A stretch of 64,000 bases of DNA from a virus. Positions within the stretch are counted from its first letter, which is position 1. Each line of letters opens with the position of its first letter. The stretch is taken from the UHGV virus genome UHGV-0086135; one strand, given 5' to 3'. Below the pieces are notes generated by a model. That model saw only the letters and a list, made by a program, of their open reading frames with translations, was not told where the DNA came from and searched no databases. The translations under genes were made by a program, and so were the position numbers. Positions 11,565 through 43,700 of this stretch are shown one piece after another.

Positions 11565-11921
11565 ATGTATAGTTCTGAATTTTCATATTTAAAAATGGAA
11601 AAAATTTCATACGATTTTATAGATGAAAAGGTTTATTACAGTTTCCATGAACCACGTTTTAATAGTGAAGTTGGGTTTATTGTAGTAAAAGACAATTTCA
11701 TTTTAAAAATATATTCGGCATTAAAGGATTTTCACTACGAAAATATTAACCTAAAATTTGATAAAGAAAATGTTCGTAATTGCGCAGTAACAATTACAGG
11801 AAATAAAGGTACATGCGTTATGCTATCTGATGAAATTAATGATTTGTTAAATGATGTAGAAAAGGTTGCTATTCCATCTATTGATGACCAAATTTTTAAT
11901 GCTTTTATGAATAGAGGTTAA
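11565..11921 (+). CDS. hypothetical protein (118 aa)
   Basis: ORF with SD; no recognisable motif. Confidence 0.5.
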   Translation: MYSSEFSYLKMEKISYDFIDEKVYYSFHEPRFNSEVGFIVVKDNFILKIYSALKDFHYENINLKFDKENVRNCAVTITGNKGTCVMLSDEINDLLNDVEKVAIPSIDDQIFNAFMNRG

Positions 11922-11922
11922 T

Positions 11923-12087
11923 ATGAAAACATATAAAGAATTTATTAAAGAAGATATGGTAGCTGGAGACTCAGGCGGTAATCCTGAAAATATCTCCACT
12001 GGAACAACGTCAGGCGCTGTAGTAAATAAAGGTCCTGAACAGATTCCTAAAAAGAAAAAAGAGGAATCTAAAGAAAAAGAAGAGTAA
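11923..12087 (+). CDS. hypothetical small acidic/lysine-rich protein (54 aa)
   Basis: ATG 11923 overlaps upstream stop; ends 2 nt before primase start. Confidence 0.4.
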   Translation: MKTYKEFIKEDMVAGDSGGNPENISTGTTSGAVVNKGPEQIPKKKKEESKEKEE

Positions 12088-12089
12088 AA

Positions 12090-13118
12090 ATGTCATCAAT
12101 ACCTTGGATTGATAATGAGTTTGCATACCGCGCATTAGCTCATTTACCTAAATTCACACAAGTAAATAATAGTTCAACTTTTAAATTGCGGTTTAGATGC
12201 CCTGTTTGTGGAGATTCAAAAACCGACCAAAATAAAGCCCGTGGATGGTATTATGGTGATAATAATGAAGGAAATATTCATTGTTATAACTGCAACTATC
12301 ATGCACCAATCGGAATATATTTAAAGGAGTTTGAACCTGATTTATATCGTGAGTATATCTTTGAAATAAGAAAAGAAAAAGGTAAAAGTCGTCCAGTAGA
12401 AAAGCCTAAAGAACTTCCTAAACAACCTGAGAAGAAAATAATTAAATCTCTTCCGTCATGTATTAGATTAGATAAACTGGCGGAAGACCATCCAATTATA
12501 AAATATGTAAAAGCTCGTTGTATTCCAAAGGATAAATGGAAATATCTTTGGTTTACAACCGAATGGCCTAAATTAGTTAATAGCATAGCACCAGGAACAT
12601 ATAAAAAGGAAATACCTGAGCCTCGTCTTGTTATTCCAATTTATAATGCTAATGGAAAAGCTGAGTCTTTTCAAGGACGTGCATTAAAGAAAGATGCTCC
12701 TCAAAAATATATCACCATCAAAGCTTATCCTGAGGCAACAAAAATTTATGGAGTTGAACGAGTCAAAGATGGTGATGTATATGTTCTAGAAGGACCTATA
12801 GATTCACTTTTTATTGAAAATGGTATAGCTATTACGGGCGGTCAATTAGACCTAGAAATTGTTCCATTTAAAGATAGACGTGTGTGGGTTTTAGATAATG
12901 AACCTCGTCACCCTGACACTATTAAACGAATGACTAAATTAGTTGATGCAGGAGAAAGGGTTATGTTTTGGGATAAATCTCCCTGGAAATCAAAAGATGT
13001 TAATGATATGATTAGAAAGGAAGGTGCAACCCCTAAACAAATTATGGAATATATGAAAAATAATATTGCCCAAGGGTTGATGGCTAAAATGCGGCTATCT
13101 AAATACGCTAAGATTTAA
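12090..13118 (+). CDS. 61: DNA primase gp61
   Basis: 342 aa as T4 gp61; N-terminal zinc ribbon CPVCGDS...HCYNCNYH; toprim-like EGPIDSLF. Confidence 0.9.
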   Translation: MSSIPWIDNEFAYRALAHLPKFTQVNNSSTFKLRFRCPVCGDSKTDQNKARGWYYGDNNEGNIHCYNCNYHAPIGIYLKEFEPDLYREYIFEIRKEKGKSRPVEKPKELPKQPEKKIIKSLPSCIRLDKLAEDHPIIKYVKARCIPKDKWKYLWFTTEWPKLVNSIAPGTYKKEIPEPRLVIPIYNANGKAESFQGRALKKDAPQKYITIKAYPEATKIYGVERVKDGDVYVLEGPIDSLFIENGIAITGGQLDLEIVPFKDRRVWVLDNEPRHPDTIKRMTKLVDAGERVMFWDKSPWKSKDVNDMIRKEGATPKQIMEYMKNNIAQGLMAKMRLSKYAKI

Positions 13119-13315
13119 ATTAACCCAACTAAAGCAAATGCTAAATCTACGAATGTATCAAGAGTAATTACTGGAATATTAACACCATGAGCAATAGCAA
13201 TTGGTGATAAAACAAAATTCCAGAGTAAAATTCCTACCATAGCAGAAATAGTAAAAGCTATACGTTTTTTATTACCTTTTATGGCATTAACAAGTGCCAT
13301 TAATTTTTGTACCAT
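13115..13315 (-). CDS. small hydrophobic membrane protein (66 aa) on opposite strand
   Basis: Minus-strand ORF with AAGGAGG SD 5 nt upstream of ATG; two predicted TM helices; convergent with gene 61. Confidence 0.55.
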   Translation of the reverse strand: MVQKLMALVNAIKGNKKRIAFTISAMVGILLWNFVLSPIAIAHGVNIPVITLDTFVDLAFALVGLI

Positions 13316-13328
13316 ATATCCTCCTTAT

Positions 13329-13352
13329 TGCTTTATATATTTATTGTATAAT
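13329..13352 (+). promoter_or_regulatory. putative MotA-dependent middle promoter for gene 56
   Basis: Exact MotA box core TGCTTTA, 11 nt spacer, TATAAT. Confidence 0.55.
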
Positions 13353-13386
13353 TAATCTACTAACCCATGAATTGAAAGGAAAAATA

Positions 13387-13905
13387 ATGGCATACTTTAA
13401 TGAATGTTCACAACTGATTGAAGGCGCTGATAAAGCTCAAAATGAATACTGGGATATTCTCGGTGATGAAAAAGACCCTCTGCAAGTTATGCTTGATATG
13501 CAGAAATCTCTACAGGTTCGTTTAGCTAAAGATAAACCTGAATATAACCGTCATCCTGATGATTTGGCTACTGCGGGTGAAGTTGTTGATTGGCTGCGTA
13601 ATCAGAAAGATTATATTGATGATGAATTCCGCGAACTACTGACTTCTCTTGGTGGTATGAGCAATGGTGAAAAAGATGCATCTGCTGTATGGAAGCCTTG
13701 GAAAGCTCAACATGGTGAACGACGTGAAACTTTAATTACTGATTTGTCTCCACAAGACCAGTTGGAAATTAAATTCGAAATGATTGATATTCTTCATTTC
13801 GTTCTAAACATGTTCCAAGGTCTCGGTCTTACGGCTGAAGAAATCTTTAAACTTTATTATCTGAAAAATGCTGAAAACTTCGCTCGTCAAGACCGAGGTT
13901 ATTAA
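13387..13905 (+). CDS. 56: dCTPase/dCDPase gp56 (MazG-like)
   Basis: 172 aa from ATG 13387 (T4 gp56 about 171 aa); MotA-box promoter upstream; ORF-track N-terminal extension rejected. Confidence 0.8.
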   Translation: MAYFNECSQLIEGADKAQNEYWDILGDEKDPLQVMLDMQKSLQVRLAKDKPEYNRHPDDLATAGEVVDWLRNQKDYIDDEFRELLTSLGGMSNGEKDASAVWKPWKAQHGERRETLITDLSPQDQLEIKFEMIDILHFVLNMFQGLGLTAEEIFKLYYLKNAENFARQDRGY

Positions 13906-14114
13906 TGGCTCGTTTAAATAAACGTCAACTTAAGAAAGCCCACAAGAAACGTATTGACCAGCTATTTAAAAATTATGACAAGGAGCTCGTATGTGAGCTC
14001 TTATCTAATCAGCTTCGTGTGGTTGATTGGGTTGATTGGGTTGTAGAAGAAGGTCCTGATGAAATTTTTGTCAGTGAAGAAGCCTTAAAATTAATTATAG
14101 AGCATTCAAAATGA
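13905..14114 (+). CDS. hypothetical protein (69 aa)
   Basis: ATG overlaps gp56 stop; contains VDWVDWV repeat. Confidence 0.45.
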   Translation: MARLNKRQLKKAHKKRIDQLFKNYDKELVCELLSNQLRVVDWVDWVVEEGPDEIFVSEEALKLIIEHSK

Positions 14115-14284
14115 AAATATCCAAAGAAGAATTTATTAGACGACAAAAAGCTTTAATTAATTTACACGAGTGGTATGCTTATCAGCTTAAAGTAGATAGC
14201 TCTAATATAAATGCTGTAATGGCTTTATATAAACAAATTCAAGATGAACACGAATTCCTGGCACAAGTTTTCATTGAAGACTGA
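14111..14284 (+). CDS. hypothetical protein (57 aa)
   Basis: ATGA overlap with upstream ORF; below ORF-track cutoff. Confidence 0.35.
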   Translation: MKISKEEFIRRQKALINLHEWYAYQLKVDSSNINAVMALYKQIQDEHEFLAQVFIED

Positions 14285-14292
14285 TATAAATA
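14285..14292 (+). promoter_or_regulatory. late promoter (TATAAATA) for soc
   Basis: Exact TATAAATA about 30 nt upstream of soc ATG. Confidence 0.7.
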
Positions 14293-14323
14293 CACTTGTA
14301 ATTAAACAATAAAGGAGTTTATT

Positions 14324-16768: not shown

Positions 16769-17392
16769 ATGATTATTAATCTCGCAGATGTTGAACAGTT
16801 ATCTATAAAAGCTGAAAGTGTCGATTTTCAATATGATATGTATAAAAAGGTCTGTGAAAAATTTACTGACTTTGAACAGTCAGTTCTTTGGCAATGTATG
16901 GAAGCCAAAAAGAATGAAGCTCTTCATCGGCAGTTGAATAAAATCGTTAAAAAGCATTTAACTAAATCGCCTTATCAGCTATATCGTGGTATATCAAAAT
17001 CGACAAAAGAACTCATTAAAGATTTGCAAGTTGGAGAAGTGTTTTCAACGAACAGAGTAGATTCATTTACTACTAGTTTGCACACAGCATGTGGTTTTTC
17101 TTATGTTGAATATTCCACTGAAATAATATTTCGCTTAAAAACTGATAAAGCTTTTAATTATTCTGACCATATCAGTGATATTATACTTTCTTCTCCTAAT
17201 ACTGAATTTAAGTATACATATGAAGATACTGATGGATTAGATTCAGAACGTACTGATAACTTAATGATGATTGTGCGTGAACAAGAATGGATGATTCCAA
17301 TTGGAAAGTATAAAATAACTTCTATTTCAAAAGAAAAATTACACGATTCATTTGGAACATTTAAAGTGTATGATATTGAGGTAGTTGAATGA
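16769..17392 (+). CDS. modA: ADP-ribosyltransferase, ModA/ModB family (first of tandem pair)
   Basis: R-S-E signature (YRGISK, STS-like, EQEWMIP); ATG 16769 with GGAGG SD; symbol by synteny, and which paralog is modA versus modB is uncertain. Confidence 0.6.
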   Translation: MIINLADVEQLSIKAESVDFQYDMYKKVCEKFTDFEQSVLWQCMEAKKNEALHRQLNKIVKKHLTKSPYQLYRGISKSTKELIKDLQVGEVFSTNRVDSFTTSLHTACGFSYVEYSTEIIFRLKTDKAFNYSDHISDIILSSPNTEFKYTYEDTDGLDSERTDNLMMIVREQEWMIPIGKYKITSISKEKLHDSFGTFKVYDIEVVE

Positions 17393-17991
17393 AATATTCA
17401 GCAATGCAATTAAAAGATTTTAAAATCAAATCAATGGATGCATCTGTGCGTGCTTCTATTCGTGAAGAATTACTTTCTGAAGGATTTAATTTATCCGAAA
17501 TTGAACTTTTAATTCATTGTATTACTAATAAGCCAGACGATCATTCTTGGTTAAATGAAATAATCAAATCTCGTTTGGTTCCAAACGATAAACCTCTTTG
17601 GAGAGGTGTTCCAGTTGAGACTAAACAGGTGTTAAATCAAGGAATTGATATTATTACATTTGATAAAGTAGTATCAGCTTCATATGATAAAAATATAGCT
17701 CTACATTTTGCTTCTGGATTAGAATACAACACGCAAGTTATTTTTGAATTCAAAGCTCCTATGGTGTTTAATTTCCAGGAGTATGCTATAAAAGCTTTAC
17801 GTTGTAAAGAATATAGCCCGAGTTTTAAATTTCCGGATAGCCATCGTTATCGTAATATGGAATTAGTTTCAGATGAACAAGAAGTAATGATACCAGCTGG
17901 AAGTGTATTTAGAATTGCGGATAGATACGAGTATAAAAAGTATTCAACATACACTATCTATACTCTTGATTTTGAAGGATTTAATCTATAA
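17389..17991 (+). CDS. modB: ADP-ribosyltransferase, ModA/ModB family (second of tandem pair)
   Basis: Paralogue of upstream ORF (LWRGV, SASY, EQEVMIPAG); 200 aa; ATGA overlap. Confidence 0.6.
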   Translation: MKYSAMQLKDFKIKSMDASVRASIREELLSEGFNLSEIELLIHCITNKPDDHSWLNEIIKSRLVPNDKPLWRGVPVETKQVLNQGIDIITFDKVVSASYDKNIALHFASGLEYNTQVIFEFKAPMVFNFQEYAIKALRCKEYSPSFKFPDSHRYRNMELVSDEQEVMIPAGSVFRIADRYEYKKYSTYTIYTLDFEGFNL

Positions 17992-18047
17992 TGGAAGGAC
18001 TTAGATTCATTATACCATGAAAGTTTTAAAGCATTTTTCATAAAGTT

Positions 18048-18077
18048 GTTTACAAGCTGAAGTAAAAATGTTATAGT
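18048..18077 (+). promoter_or_regulatory. early promoter upstream of srd
   Basis: -35 GTTTACA, 18 nt, TGTTATAGT. Confidence 0.6.
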
Positions 18078-18107
18078 ATAAGTAGTTAACCCGTCCGTGA
18101 GAAAAAT

Positions 18108-18854
18108 ATGAAACTGTCTAAAAATCAAATTCGTAAAATTACACGTCGTCTAGAGCACACTCAGGCATCTGCTAAAAGACGTTCTAAAGATTTTAACTTA
18201 GACTTCAATTACATTAAGAACATTTTAGATCAGAAAGTTTGCGCTTACTCAGGAGAACCTTTTGATAATCGTATTGAAGGAGAGAAATTATCATTAGAAC
18301 GTTTTGATAATAACGTTGGATACATTAAAGGGAATGTTATTGCAGTAAAGAAAAAGTACAATACATTTCGTTCTGATTATACTTTAGAAGAGTTGATTGA
18401 AAAGCGTGATTTATTTGCTTTACGAATTGGTCGTTCATCTGCGAAAAAAGTTCATAAACTAAATTTAGATGAAAAGAAATGGGCTAAAATCAAAAAGACT
18501 TATAATCAAATTAAAGCTATACAGAAAAAACGTGAAAACCGAATTGAACACATTTCTCAGCTTTCTAAATCAAAACAAACCTCTGACATTAAGCTAACGA
18601 TTATAGCACTCAAAGCTCGTATTGATGGTTCTCGTATAGCAGAAGGCACTGAAGTTGTTAAATTGAACGTTCTTCTTAAAGGCTCTGATTGGAAAACTGT
18701 GAAAAAGTTGTCAGAAGCAGAAATGCAATATGATATGTGTGATAAAATTATTCAAGGTGTAGAGCGGTATCAAAACTTGTCTTTTATTGATAAACTTAAA
18801 CTGAAAAGAGGATACCCGCTAAATTGTTCAATTTTTAAACTTATCCGGGGATAA
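18108..18854 (+). CDS. srd: Srd-like protein (T4 srd position)
   Basis: 248 aa between mod genes and dda.1/dda as T4 srd; own early promoter; assignment by synteny. Confidence 0.5.
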   Translation: MKLSKNQIRKITRRLEHTQASAKRRSKDFNLDFNYIKNILDQKVCAYSGEPFDNRIEGEKLSLERFDNNVGYIKGNVIAVKKKYNTFRSDYTLEELIEKRDLFALRIGRSSAKKVHKLNLDEKKWAKIKKTYNQIKAIQKKRENRIEHISQLSKSKQTSDIKLTIIALKARIDGSRIAEGTEVVKLNVLLKGSDWKTVKKLSEAEMQYDMCDKIIQGVERYQNLSFIDKLKLKRGYPLNCSIFKLIRG

Positions 18855-18855
18855 T

Positions 18856-19167
18856 ATGTTTTATGTATATGCGATAGTTTATAGAGATAAAGATGGATTT
18901 GCAGTGCCTGTTCCGCTTGATGAACATCGTCCTGCTGTATTTTTTGAAAGGGAGATTGCTGATAAAGTATTTACCACTCTTAAAGAGCAGTATCGACTAG
19001 CTTTAGGTATGGGAATTCCGAGATTAGTTGAGACTCCACGCAAGTTTTGGTTTAATAAAATAGAAGTTAAACGCGTTAAGCCTGATGTAGACACACAAAG
19101 ATTATATCGGCGAATTTTAGATACTGGGCGTATTGTTAGTATACCAATTGCAGGGAATTTACGATGA
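18856..19167 (+). CDS. hypothetical protein (dda.1 position)
   Basis: 103 aa immediately upstream of dda with overlapping stop/start. Confidence 0.5.
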   Translation: MFYVYAIVYRDKDGFAVPVPLDEHRPAVFFEREIADKVFTTLKEQYRLALGMGIPRLVETPRKFWFNKIEVKRVKPDVDTQRLYRRILDTGRIVSIPIAGNLR

Positions 19168-24568: not shown

Positions 24569-24940
24569 ATGTTTAAAATTGGTAAGAAATATCGCATTCG
24601 CGAAGGTGAAGAAAAGAAATATCTATTTTCTGCTATTTATAGGAATGGTTCTATTAATGCCGTAATATCTACAAGCGAATTTATCGTTGAAGATATGAAA
24701 GGTAATAATGTTACAATGATTAGTACAGCATCTGGAAATGATGGAAAAATTCTTCACAGTTTTCAGAGTAATGTTCTAATATATGATGAAGAATTTGACC
24801 TATTCGAAGAAGTCCCCGAAGGTTTTGATTTTGAATGCACTATCACTATGAAATCTGGTGACCCTCTTTCATTTACAGTTAAAGATGAAAGAAGTCGCTT
24901 GAGAATTATTAGTCTCCTTCAAGCCATTAAATTTAAGTGA
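24569..24940 (+). CDS. hypothetical protein (123 aa)
   Basis: ORF directly upstream of lipoprotein and gene 39. Confidence 0.5.
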   Translation: MFKIGKKYRIREGEEKKYLFSAIYRNGSINAVISTSEFIVEDMKGNNVTMISTASGNDGKILHSFQSNVLIYDEEFDLFEEVPEGFDFECTITMKSGDPLSFTVKDERSRLRIISLLQAIKFK

Positions 24941-38590: not shown

Positions 38591-39247
38591 TTATTTAGCC
38601 CTTCCTAATATTCTGGCCGCCTGAGCACATATTGATTCAAGGCGGTCATTACTTATATGATCATTTCTATACCAGTACATGGTTATTGTTCCAGCATAGA
38701 TATTATCCAAATTAAAATATGGACAACTGTACATGTAATTTATTTCTGGAGTAGGCTTTTTAGTTGGTAAAAAAGCAAATTTTGAGTTTGAATAATAATG
38801 ACGTCCATTTAAATGAACTGCATATTCATCCATAGTTTTATCAACAGGATATCCTCCAAGTGATTTTTCACTTATTGTTGAAGGTAATTTTCCTTCATAT
38901 GCTATAATATCAACAAAATAGTTTAAGTTTTTAGGGCGGAAAGAATACACCGCACTAAAGTCTGCCTCAGATGATATATGAACTATCTGGAGTTGTTCCA
39001 GGGCGACAGATTCAAAGCGTGCATTTCTTTCCTTTTCAATAATTTCACTGTATGTTTCATACTTTGATTGCTTATAGTACTCAAAGAAACTATCTCCCCT
39101 ATACCAAACAATCGCCATTATAAACAAAAGAATTACGACAGCTACCCGGGAAGCAAGAACTTTCCCGGTAGCGTTATCTTTGAACAAGCGATCTAGAACA
39201 CCAAACAGAATACCAGAGGGCGAAAATGATATTCTAGGTGCTGTCAT
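38591..39247 (-). CDS. t: holin T
   Basis: 218 aa; near-identity to recalled T4 holin; AGGAGG SD; convergent with asiA. Confidence 0.9.
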   Translation of the reverse strand: MTAPRISFSPSGILFGVLDRLFKDNATGKVLASRVAVVILLFIMAIVWYRGDSFFEYYKQSKYETYSEIIEKERNARFESVALEQLQIVHISSEADFSAVYSFRPKNLNYFVDIIAYEGKLPSTISEKSLGGYPVDKTMDEYAVHLNGRHYYSNSKFAFLPTKKPTPEINYMYSCPYFNLDNIYAGTITMYWYRNDHISNDRLESICAQAARILGRAK

Positions 39248-39277: not shown

Positions 39278-40060
39278 TTATACTCTTGGACCATATATTG
39301 CTCCAACGTTTTGCCATGTCGGTGTAGACCCTATGACGGCATAACCAGCAGCTCCGCCATCGTATTCATATCCTTGACCACGAATATTACATCTACCTCC
39401 TGCGGAGCCAACTTCACCACCAGACCCGCCGTTGTAGATACCGTTCACAGACCCTGCGCCTGGCGCAGAAATAGTACCAGCAGTTGCTCCTGATTGCATA
39501 TCAATAGATCCGCCCGGTGCGCCAAACGGACGACCGCCGCCACCGCCAAAGGTCAATCTCATTTGTGAAAAAGGAGAATAATACCCGCCGCCACCGCCGC
39601 CACCGCCGCCAGCAATAGCTCCGCCATTATTAATTCTTAGTCTCCCACCAATATCATTTTGAATACAATGACCCCCAGCTGAGCCAGGACTATTGCTACC
39701 GCCATTCCCGCCACGGCCATACATCGTTACACCATGTATGTTCAACTGAACATATTCATTCGGTGTATCTCCGTACATGAAGAATAAAGGAACATCTTTA
39801 GAATATGATACTAAATCTCCAGTGATATTAAACACTATAGGTGCACTACCTGCCTCAAAACATCTATCTCGGAACCATTGACCATTGAAGTTATGGTCTG
39901 CTCCAAGCGTGTGAATAATTTCTCTTGAGCGACCTGCAAATTGACTCATCCAGCAAGGAATACCCAATCTTAATTGACCAGCCGCTTGACTCATCCATCG
40001 TTGTCCTGTTTCATTTACGGATGAACTACCAATCCAACCAGGAACACCAACTACTGCCAT
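39278..40060 (-). CDS. 38: receptor-recognising adhesin gp38 (T2-type, glycine-rich motifs)
   Basis: Poly-Gly blocks [12 protein letters not shown] and [13 protein letters not shown] separating variable segments; ATG at 40060 with GGAG SD (ORF-track TTG start at 40072 rejected). Confidence 0.75.
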
Positions 40061-40092
40061 AATTTTCTCCAAAGGGGCAAAGCCCCTTGTTG

Positions 40093-43049: not shown

Positions 43050-43700
43050 TTAATAATAGCCGAAATCTTGAACAGAATCCTTAATCACGATTTGGTCAAA
43101 TCGTGGAACATGCGAGGGTTGAGATGCAGGATTCTGCGAGAAAAAGTTTGGCGCTGTTAAATTACCTGTCATGGTGTCACCTTTACGCAAAACTCTAGAA
43201 TTCGCATTTGCCGTAACAGTATTTATTGCTCCATCAACATAATCTTTACGAGTAACATCAGATGCTGCGGAAGGAGTAGATGTAACAGTTACAGATGGAG
43301 CTGTTACAGCCCTAGTAAATGTTGTCAAACCTTCTGGCGTAATAGTAATTTGTCCAGTAGTGATTTCACTACCTGCAGGTCTAAAACTAATACCGCCAGA
43401 AGAGCCTCCAACTACAAGAGTATTGCCGGTACCGCCACCAGAACGAATTCGAATGGGGGTTTCATTATTACTTAATTGAAGATAACTATTTACCCCGTAA
43501 TTAATAGTAATTGGACCGGTGTAAGTGCCACCATTAGCTTTAGAAACGAAATCGTTATCAGCTGCCTGCGGTTTATTATATTCTGAATATATTTTAAATG
43601 ATTTGTAGAGTACATCGTCACCGGCTGAATTCAATGGAAAATTTCCTTGATGCCAAATGACAGATCCACCCACAGTTGAACCTACTTTTAAATCAGCCAT
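43050..43700 (-). CDS. 36: long tail fibre distal connector gp36
   Basis: 216 aa; synteny 34-35-36-37; late promoter upstream. Confidence 0.8.

Follow-up and report, generated by a model that had tools for sequence, protein, structure and literature searches.

A small opposite-strand gene between genes 61 and 56 of a T-even-type phage is the catalogued but uncharacterised dam.1, predicted to encode a late membrane protein

The locus between genes 61 and 56

In this study, we analysed a 66-aa ORF on the minus strand of a 64,000-nucleotide stretch of the virus genome UHGV-0086135 (hereafter the window). The ORF lies between the genes for DNA primase and dCTPase/dUTPase, and the features of the locus are as follows.

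12090..13118, plus strand: gene 61, DNA primase (phrog_47, E 1.9e-106), convergent with the ORF
13115..13315, minus strand: small membrane-protein CDS (predicted), 66 aa; ortholog of T4T dam.1 / RB32ORF030w; PHROG 2024
13281..13310, plus strand (that of gene 61): terminator-like hairpin ATGGCATTAACAAGTGCCAT followed by TAATTTTTGT, inside ORF codons 6-12
13320..13326, minus strand: Shine-Dalgarno site AAGGAGG, read from the sequence, 4 nt 5' of the ATG (13315->13313)
13326..13352, plus strand: MotA-type middle promoter of gene 56 (MotA box TAT-TGCTTTA at 13326-13335, 11-nt spacer, -10 TATAAT at 13347-13352)
13338..13345, minus strand: putative T4 late-promoter box AATAAATA, A(-13) variant, spanning -13 to -6, 22 nt before the ATG
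13387..13905, plus strand: gene 56, dCTPase/dUTPase (phrog_173, E 1.1e-46), divergent from the ORF

The protein sequence of the ORF is MVQKLMALVNAIKGNKKRIAFTISAMVGILLWNFVLSPIAIAHGVNIPVITLDTFVDLAFALVGLI. A preliminary description of this DNA had reported a hydrophobic 66-aa minus-strand ORF with an AAGGAGG Shine-Dalgarno site, convergent with gene 61 and with overlapping stops, and our analysis bears this out: the Shine-Dalgarno site reads from 13326 to 13320, the TAA of gene 61 occupies 13116-13118, and 13115-13117, read as the reverse complement, gives the ORF stop. The two stop codons therefore share the palindromic TTAA (13115-13118) and overlap by 2 nt. The further statement that this is the only minus-strand gene in 38 kb holds among minus-strand ORFs of at least 100 aa, because none of the six scanned over 1-38.5 kb has a credible PHROG match. 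The run of real minus-strand genes opens at 38591: holin t comes first, and gp38 and the large ORFs upstream of it come next. No second copy of the ORF was found within the 64-kb window.

The opposite-strand ORF is a genuine gene that has already been catalogued, as dam.1 in T4T, although it is uncharacterised. Residues 2-66 match profile positions 1-65 (of 65) of phrog_2024, annotated as function unknown, at E 5.4e-31, and each of the 27 sampled relatives also matches this profile. The T4T dam.1 protein (ADJ39749.1) is 95.5% identical to the window protein, and the exact 66-aa sequence also occurs in phages ime09 and SHFML-26. A tblastn search with the protein gave 693 phage records, 687 of them near full length and intact, and about 503 records at the Tequatrovirus level with at least 80% identity. 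The T4 copy is named 'Uncharacterized protein dam.1' in UniRef; dam.1 is annotated in T4T (HM137666) and omitted both from the T4 RefSeq record (NC_000866) and from the 1984 annotation. A literature search for dam.1, RB32ORF030w and T4 ribosome profiling turned up nothing, and a T4 multi-omics paper does not mention the dam.1 locus. For T4, a dRNA-seq study gives 150 phage start sites, of which 22 are antisense (bioRxiv 10.1101/2024.04.04.588121).

Two promoters in one upstream region

Late transcription in T4 is coupled to replication and depends on gp55, gp33 and gp45, and late transcripts have their 5' end about 6 nt downstream of the box. Read in this way, the box upstream of the ORF would place a late start site near 13332 and give a 17-nt leader. 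Only six NATAAATA sites occur on the minus strand of the 64-kb window, including that of the ORF, and three of the other five lie directly upstream of ORFs, namely holin t, a 216-aa ORF and a 1289-aa ORF. Holin t carries the same AATAAATA variant in the window. The -13 base of the ORF box is A in the window, G in T4 (GATAAATA at NC_000866 17709-17716) and C in Gaprivervirus, the G and C variants being rarer than A. Position -13 of T4 late promoters is poorly conserved (PMC1524935), and A(-13) is their most frequent natural variant, with 9 of 50 promoters (PMC2988020).

The ATAAATA core is invariant, 16-22 nt 5' of the ATG, at 13 loci from three genera with three unrelated upstream contexts, and both the sequence between the box and the Shine-Dalgarno site and that upstream of the box are otherwise unrelated among these loci. 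A perfect TATAAATA precedes the homologue in Marfa, EK29, Q7622 and CIP9, and the core is also present in the other subfamilies except in SEA1 (TATTAAATA). This retention of ATAAATA in almost every lineage predicts gp55-dependent late transcription of the ORF. The 22 related loci examined all have a GGAG-type Shine-Dalgarno site in this position, except for the internal second copy of VR25 (GGTGG). The spacing of 4 nt between this site and the ATG in the window is short, which counts against the reading proposed here.

The late box of the ORF lies, on the other strand, inside the 11-nt spacer of the gene 56 middle promoter. The T4 counterpart of this promoter, P(M)16.53, is annotated in X01416 as ATTGCTTA, 12 nt and TATAAT, and also as the source of the oriA primer transcript. 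The earlier view of the region as a compact divergent control region, with the MotA-box promoter of gene 56 upstream of the ORF, is thus supported by the promoter at 13326-13352 (plus strand). Since the two elements are back to back, one within the spacer of the other, one stretch of 30 bp would drive transcription rightward during the middle period and leftward at late times.

Conservation, coding evidence and relation to dam

An IMG/VR scan yielded only 7 loci, and the diversity of the family was therefore drawn from GenBank phage records instead. A profile search of 1.84 billion representatives likewise gave 7 matches, one of them spurious (a 1255-aa PQQ-repeat protein matching 'LLWNF'). 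Nine sampled T4-like genera carry the ORF, which with few exceptions lies on the opposite strand and converges with primase. A synteny comparison had been suggested, and it shows the ORF recurring across genera between gene 56 (or an insert) and primase: the layout in which it is flanked by gene 56 (or dam, or a MazG-like ORF) and primase, in the orientation opposite to both, is present in Tequatrovirus, Mosigvirus, Gaprivervirus, Dhakavirus, Marfavirus, Kanagawavirus, Gelderlandvirus and Jiaodavirus. The layout of the window is repeated in T4T, SHFML-26, ST0, VR25, Marfa, JS98, Q7622, SEA1, CIP9, PEi26, EK29 and JD18. In the metagenomic member P0087, the convergent partner is not primase but a different gene of 65 aa. 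Karamvirus CC31 has no copy in the 22 kb searched, and the ORF is therefore not a core gene.

The dN/dS values of the ORF are 0.07-0.29 (up to about 0.3) within Tequatrovirus and 0.11-0.13 within Mosigvirus, and its variable columns are distributed 45/21/55 over the three codon positions, the second position varying least. The constraint appears relaxed in Gaprivervirus, because the copy-1 pair of VR25 and TH40 has a dN/dS of 0.68 and the second copy of TH40 is broken. W32, N33 and P38 are invariant, and G44 and P48 show no change in a set of 16 sequences and almost none in 27. The W-N...P pattern also persists in two further subfamilies with 20-30% identity, which hhalign links to the family (97.7% probability, E 2.5e-12).

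These data bear on the possibility that there is no gene here, only a chance frame or the shadow of a plus-strand element such as a gene 61 terminator. A terminator-like hairpin does overlap codons 6-12 on the plus strand, and T4 RefSeq lacks the ORF. However, the hairpin is weak, with a folding energy of -8.9 kcal/mol and a z score of only -1.46, and it is seen in Tequatrovirus, including T4, and missing from Mosigvirus and Gaprivervirus, in which the protein is nevertheless conserved; it is a weakly supported candidate for a terminator of gene 61 transcripts. The low dN/dS, the codon-position pattern of substitutions, the conservation of the start codon, Shine-Dalgarno site and late-promoter core, and the intact frame in 687 of 693 records make the absence of a gene extremely improbable. 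An antisense shadow of the gene 61 terminator is ruled out, as the protein is conserved more widely than the hairpin, and the preliminary reading of a real opposite-strand gene, under purifying selection in its own frame, stands. The suggestion that the ORF replaces dam fares differently. It was based on the absence of a dam equivalent from the window, which we confirmed (tblastn with T4 Dam, best E 2.6), and on the position of the ORF, which is where T4 has dam relative to gene 56. T4 has both genes side by side, with dam at 16846-17625 and the ORF from about 17738, within the 310-bp gap between dam and 61. T4 carries a dam cassette of roughly 900 bp, absent from the window, between the points matching window positions 13326 and 13347, so that the indel lies wholly upstream of the Shine-Dalgarno site of the ORF. 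T4-type dam is present in 184 phage records, and dam and the ORF occur together in T4 and about 180 other phages; the ORF is found in dam-less and dam-carrying genomes alike and also in eight other genera. Judged from these sequence comparisons, dam is a variable insert, whereas the small ORF is near-universal in Tequatrovirus, and we give virtually no credence to a lineage-specific replacement of dam in this phage.

Predicted product, possible roles and comparison with known systems

The proposed check of membrane topology supports a small membrane protein, both by composition and by the AlphaFold model. The model (pLDDT 78) contains helices at residues 2-12, 16-42 and 52-63. Across the family, the N-terminus has a net charge of +2 to +6, the transmembrane helix a mean Kyte-Doolittle value of 1.7-2.4, and the tail a charge of 0 to -3. 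The C-terminus of the window protein, ...DLAFALVGLI, has a mean Kyte-Doolittle value of 2.07 and a net charge of -2, and the charged region is N-terminal. The basic N-terminus leads into the single hydrophobic helix, whose outer end bears the motif W-N-x4-P. The predicted topology is a basic N-terminus in the cytoplasm, a single transmembrane helix and a short tail that is periplasmic or interfacial. No Pfam match was obtained for the window protein at E<=0.1, and 27 members at E<=1 gave nine chance-level matches, none to a holin family; NCBIfam gave no match at E<=1, a PDB fold search gave no match, and a BFVD fold search returned family members only. In-silico trypsin digestion yields only one tractable peptide, the 9-mer LMALVNAIK.

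We propose that the ORF is an accessory protein-coding gene of T-even-type phages, set between the early/middle genes 61 and 56 and carried on the other strand. After DNA replication starts, gp55-RNA polymerase would initiate at AATAAATA (13345->13338), with a strong Shine-Dalgarno site on the short leader of the late transcript. The 66-aa product is expected in the inner membrane, with a basic amphipathic cytoplasmic N-terminus, as composition and the AlphaFold model suggest; its transmembrane helix (approximately residues 16-42) would carry W32-N33...P38 at the periplasmic end, and the short acidic and hydrophobic C-terminal helix may lie at the periplasmic face or re-insert into the membrane. 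Taken jointly, the dam.1/PHROG 2024 identity, the coding status, the predicted late expression and the predicted membrane location are probably correct. The predicted late timing and membrane location, the dispensability in some lineages and the restriction to phages of Enterobacterales lead us to suggest, tentatively, that the product may be a late accessory factor acting on the envelope, in lysis timing, lysis inhibition or membrane protection. More speculatively still, Dam.1/PHROG 2024 could be an overlooked late-phase membrane effector that modulates holin T or lysis inhibition, blocks superinfection or lysis from without, or inhibits membrane-acting abortive-infection effectors. Such a role would have escaped T4 genetics and omics because NC_000866 lacks the gene. 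We do not think that the product is a structural or replication protein.

Other readings of the gene were weighed against an accessory late membrane protein. A holin, pinholin or antiholin-like lysis protein, whose oligomers permeabilise the inner membrane or tune the T holin, would suit a small, membrane-embedded protein with the conserved polar residues N33, H43, D53 and D57 and with the late-promoter variant of holin t in the window. Some database records label homologues 'Holin', 'putative holin' or 'holin family protein', and the divergent member P0087 matches phrog_11161 'holin' at E 7.9e-4; however, the labels are unreferenced automatic names, and Pfam, NCBIfam and PHROGs give no holin-family match for the window protein or for 26 of 27 family members. 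The family profile matches the holin T of the window with a probability of 0.3%, the C-terminus is hydrophobic (…ALVGLI) instead of the charged tail typical of holins, the neighbours are primase and dCTPase with no adjacent endolysin or spanin gene, and these phages already have T. A holin-like function is thus unlikely. It is also quite unlikely that residues 1-42 form a long cleavable Sec signal peptide, releasing a secreted or membrane-associated active peptide of about 24 aa (HGVNIPVITLDTFVDLAFALVGLI). The basic n-region and hydrophobic core would fit, as would the family-wide P-x-[A/L]-x-[A/S/T] directly before a conserved [H/N/Q/K]-G, a pattern reminiscent of a signal peptidase I site (small residues at -3/-1, helix-breaking Pro at -5). 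However, cleaved signals have an h-region of about 10-15 residues, and a hydrophobic core of 18-19 residues after an 18-residue N-terminal extension is rather long for one and fits a typical signal anchor, and the strongest conservation (W32, N33 and P38) would fall within the supposed signal peptide, which is unusual.

A function mainly at the RNA level, in which a late antisense transcript into gene 61 silences or processes primase and early messages and the peptide is secondary, is very unlikely. No minus-strand terminator is predicted for about 4 kb downstream of the ORF, and a late transcript would thus run antisense to gene 61; no other non-coding element is as rigidly conserved as the promoter core, and the convergence with overlapping stops is kept across genera. 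However, the purifying selection on amino acids and the residues that stay invariant at 20-30% identity indicate that the peptide itself is under selection, and in P0087 the 65-aa gene takes the place of primase as the convergent partner.

The earlier observation thus comes down to a gene that is already annotated, though uncharacterised, and that does not stand in for dam. The T4 reference record omits a gene that purifying selection maintains across about a thousand sequenced T-even-type phages and that has a conserved putative late promoter. Analyses that depend on NC_000866 (RNA-seq counting, proteomics databases and CRISPRi libraries among them) would miss dam.1. The locus also offers a compact case of two promoters of different timing on opposite strands within one 30 bp, a MotA/AsiA-sigma70 middle promoter and a predicted gp55 late promoter. 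The finding is ordinary in itself, and dam.1 is modestly interesting as an overlooked T4 gene.

Dam.1 of T4T is the same gene: it lies at the same place and on the same strand, and its stop likewise overlaps that of gene 61. The upstream neighbour of the ORF is dam in T4 and gene 56 in the window, and otherwise nothing material differs beyond the -13 base (G versus A). Holin T, encoded at 38591-39247, 25 kb from the ORF, is, as predicted for the ORF product, a late-expressed inner-membrane protein with a AATAAATA promoter in the window, and the predicted cytoplasmic N-terminus and single transmembrane helix of the ORF product recall the N-terminal part of T. However, the two share no sequence relationship (hhalign, the 0.3% probability given above), so homology to holin T was dropped, and the ORF product lacks the large periplasmic domain of T. 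It also differs from class I/II holins in having neither a charged C-terminal tail nor a lysis cassette nearby.

A local likeness to the N-terminal signal-anchor-release (SAR) domain of the T4 antiholin RI was also considered (AMVGILLWNFVLSPIAIA versus AMLGLSFVLSPSIEA; BLASTP, 8/20 identities, E 0.009 for a single comparison). It was dropped as a coincidental similarity of transmembrane segments, the family profile giving a probability of 0.3%. The FVLSP segment is confined to Tequatrovirus, with P38 as its sole invariant residue, and the ORF product lacks a periplasmic domain. The Gly/Ala/Ser/Thr content of its helix is 33% in the window and 17-42% in the family, which is not clearly SAR-like by what we presume to be the expectation for such domains, a weakly hydrophobic helix rich in these four residues. 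A parallel in arrangement is soc, which also has a gp55-type late promoter within the early/middle block, TATAAATA at 14285-14292 (plus strand) preceding it 1 kb away. While soc lies on the early-gene strand, the ORF lies on the opposite strand, and its putative promoter overlaps a middle promoter.

The opposite-strand gene between genes 61 and 56

The window is a segment of a Tequatrovirus genome. Its positions 12000-14200 share 98% identity with Shigella phage SHFML-26 and are matched by 726 phage records. The interval around the small ORF contains the following features.

12090..13118, plus strand: gene 61 primase (phrog_47)
13115..13315, minus strand: the ORF, 66 aa
4 nt 5' of the ORF's ATG, minus strand: Shine-Dalgarno AAGGAGG, read from the sequence
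13281-13310, plus strand: terminator-like hairpin and T-tract (hairpin 13281-13300, then TAATTTTTGT), a possible end point of gene 61 transcripts, ~165 nt beyond the stop of gene 61
13326-13335 and 13347-13352, plus strand: MotA-type middle promoter of gene 56 (TAT-TGCTTTA, 11 nt, TATAAT)
13345->13338, minus strand: T4 late-promoter box AATAAATA, A for T at -13
13387, plus strand: start of gene 56

The stops of the ORF and gene 61 both use the palindrome TTAA at 13115-13118, and the gene 56 promoter corresponds to P(M)16.53 as annotated in T4. Six minus-strand ORFs of at least 100 aa were scanned from 1 to 38.5 kb, none with a credible family match; real minus-strand genes reappear only from 38591, with holin t, gp38, and large minus-strand ORFs upstream of both. 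The preliminary description of a 66-aa ORF with an AAGGAGG site, convergent with gene 61, adjoining a MotA-type promoter and standing as the sole minus-strand gene in 38 kb is therefore confirmed, the last point as regards ORFs of at least 100 aa. The 264-aa ORF adjoining holin t (39278-40072, minus strand) matches PHROG families labeled "tail fiber protein; host specificity" (phrog_2056) and "tail fiber adhesin"; we take it to be a T2/T6-type gp38 adhesin rather than the T4-type gp38 assembly chaperone.

The surroundings of the primase gene are a mosaic of small accessory-gene swaps. A 118-aa ORF occupies 11565-11921 (plus strand), where T4 and SHFML-26 have the 208-aa 61.2. Relative to T4, the window is without dam and segF, and 13905-14320 (plus strand) is also listed as a swap region.

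Family distribution and coding status

PHROG 2024 (function unknown) is matched over the full length of the ORF (E 5.4e-31) and by 27 of 27 sampled members; Pfam and NCBIfam searches with the window protein gave no match. In tblastn, the window protein is 90-100% identical to Tequatrovirus homologs and ~50% identical to those of Mosigvirus and Gaprivervirus, which together form subfamily 1. The diverged subfamily 2 is defined by the second copy of Gaprivervirus VR25, is joined to subfamily 1 by hhalign (97.7% probability, E 2.5e-12), and is found in Dhakavirus (JS98), Marfavirus (Marfa, EK29), Kanagawavirus (Q7622, CIP9, PEi26), and Gelderlandvirus (SEA1). A third subfamily is found in Jiaodavirus (JD18), Salmonella phages AKM_NP4 and UTK0003, and Citrobacter phage CF1. 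Three residues (W32, N33, and P38) are invariant and two more (G44 and P48) nearly so. Profile searches covering 5.8 billion proteins and 1.84 billion representatives returned matches of 33-74 aa only, with long contigs of 160-175 kb; the sole exception in size was a spurious repeat protein. The family is confined to T-even-type phages of Enterobacterales, and no family gene was found in Karamvirus CC31.

The layout noted in the window recurs across genera: the gene is opposite to the early genes in every annotated locus and nearly always convergent with primase, whether the upstream neighbor is gene 56, dam, or a MazG-like ORF. The most divergent member, P0087 (metagenome contig L025, 395-604), is divergent from a gene 56 homolog (MAHFNECSQL...) and converges on a 65-aa gene, not on primase. 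Gaprivervirus VR25 has two diverged tandem copies (locus L004, 1995-2401), one of subfamily 1 and the other, which has no promoter box of its own, of subfamily 2. In TH40 (locus L005, 1995-2400), the second copy is broken (ATG TGA).

The ORF is protein-coding. dN/dS (Nei-Gojobori) is 0.07-0.29 in Tequatrovirus pairs and 0.11-0.13 in Mosigvirus pairs, and the variable alignment columns per codon position number 45/21/55. Constraint is relaxed in Gaprivervirus, as indicated by a copy-1 dN/dS of 0.68 for the VR25/TH40 pair and by the interrupted second copy of TH40. The rival reading, raised in the preliminary description, was an antisense shadow of a conserved plus-strand element. The terminator-like hairpin, which overlaps codons 6-12 in the 5' coding part, is the candidate for such an element. 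It is weak (-8.9 kcal/mol, z = -1.46) and is kept in Tequatrovirus only. Mosigvirus and Gaprivervirus, by contrast, conserve the peptide motif AIKGNKK that the ORF encodes at this position. The shadow explanation is therefore rejected.

Predicted late expression and membrane topology

On the ORF strand, the upstream sequence reads ...ACAATAAATATATAAAGCAATAAGGAGGATAT-ATG. The T4 late box spans -13 to -6, with -13 poorly conserved among T4-like phages (Nolan et al., PMC1524935), and the A(-13) variant occurs in 9 of 50 T4 late promoters (Geiduschek and Kassavetis, PMC2988020). The ATAAATA core shows no variation across 13 loci in three genera and lies 16-22 nt 5' of the ATG; A, G, or C occupies -13, and the flanks of the box differ wholly among dam-carrying, dam-less, and other contexts. 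The box is a perfect TATAAATA in Marfa, EK29, Q7622, and CIP9, AATAAATA in JS98, CATAAATA in PEi26 and JD18, GATAAATA in a metagenomic member, and TATTAAATA in SEA1. Only six NATAAATA sites occur on the minus strand of the 64-kb window, and three of the other five lie just 5' of ORFs (a 1289-aa ORF, a 216-aa ORF, and holin t). Upstream of holin t (38591-39247, minus strand, 218 aa, phrog_860), the box at 39273->39266 is of the variant seen at the ORF, AATAAATA.

This box would direct gp55-dependent late transcription with a start near 13332. The gene 56 middle promoter, on the opposite strand, has the box within its spacer, so that the two promoters physically overlap. No minus-strand terminator is predicted over ~4 kb past the ORF, and the predicted late transcripts would thus run antisense to gene 61. 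Elsewhere on the minus strand, a perfect TATAAATA at 24634-24641 lies inside the plus-strand ORF 24569..24940; no credible minus-strand ORF was found after it, and it may be an orphan late promoter with an antisense transcript. Another AATAAATA, at 43220-43227 within the 216-aa minus-strand ORF 43050..43700, may reflect chance or an internal site of late-promoter type.

Family-wide, the N-terminal 14-18 residues carry a net charge of +2 to +6, residues 19-42 are strongly hydrophobic (mean Kyte-Doolittle score 1.7-2.4), and the C-terminal tail has a charge of 0 to -3, being hydrophobic in subfamily 1 and much less so in subfamily 2. An AlphaFold model built with 27 sequences has helices at 2-12, 16-42, and 52-63 and a mean pLDDT of 78. 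The positive-inside rule predicts a cytoplasmic N-terminus, which would place the W-N...P...G...P segment at the periplasmic end of the helix. The last helix may be re-inserted into the membrane, lie at the interface, or be freed through signal peptidase cleavage at the conserved motif P-x-A-x-A / H-G.

Possible roles and comparison with T4

No specific function was assigned by family, profile, or fold searches; the BFVD search returned family members only, and the PDB gave no match. Occasional "holin" names on homologs are unreferenced. The one match in favor of a holin-like protein is that of P0087 to phrog_11161 "holin" (E 7.9e-4), which is marginal, whereas the window protein and 26 of 27 relatives match no holin family. 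Moreover, the family profile is unrelated to holin T, the C-terminus is uncharged, and the gene lies outside any lysis cassette. A relation to the RI antiholin was rejected by a negative family-profile comparison, although a pairwise alignment shows local similarity to the SAR domain of RI. Our tentative suggestion is that the protein is a dispensable accessory factor with a late role at the envelope, a guess drawn from the predicted late timing, the predicted inner-membrane location, the restriction to Enterobacterales T-even phages, the loss in CC31, and the duplication and subsequent decay in Gaprivervirus. Lysis timing, lysis inhibition, membrane protection, and counter-defence are speculative candidate roles.

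The suggestion that the ORF may replace dam fails on comparison with T4, which has both side by side. The T4 RefSeq record places dam at 16846-17625 and gene 61 at 17935-18963, with an unannotated 310-bp gap between them. This gap (NC_000866 17626-17934; 3127-3435 of T4 locus L002), which has no CDS in RefSeq, holds the same ORF, the same ribosome-binding site, and a GATAAATA box, all intact. The window and T4 share 97% identity over gene 61 and the ORF up to 13326. Beyond this point, a dam cassette of ~900 bp in T4 stands against 20 bp in the window, and homology is back from 13347. No dam was found in the 64-kb window. T4-type dam occurs in 184 phage records and the ORF in 693, of which ~503 encode a protein at least 80% identical; it is dam that varies, and the small ORF stays constant. 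The gene is already catalogued as PHROG 2024 and as dam.1, the name given to the gap ORF in the T4T record and, as "Uncharacterized protein dam.1", in UniRef. As a scan result it is ordinary, and its interest is modest: a conserved, predicted-late membrane-protein gene was overlooked in a model phage, and the T4 RefSeq annotation does not include it.
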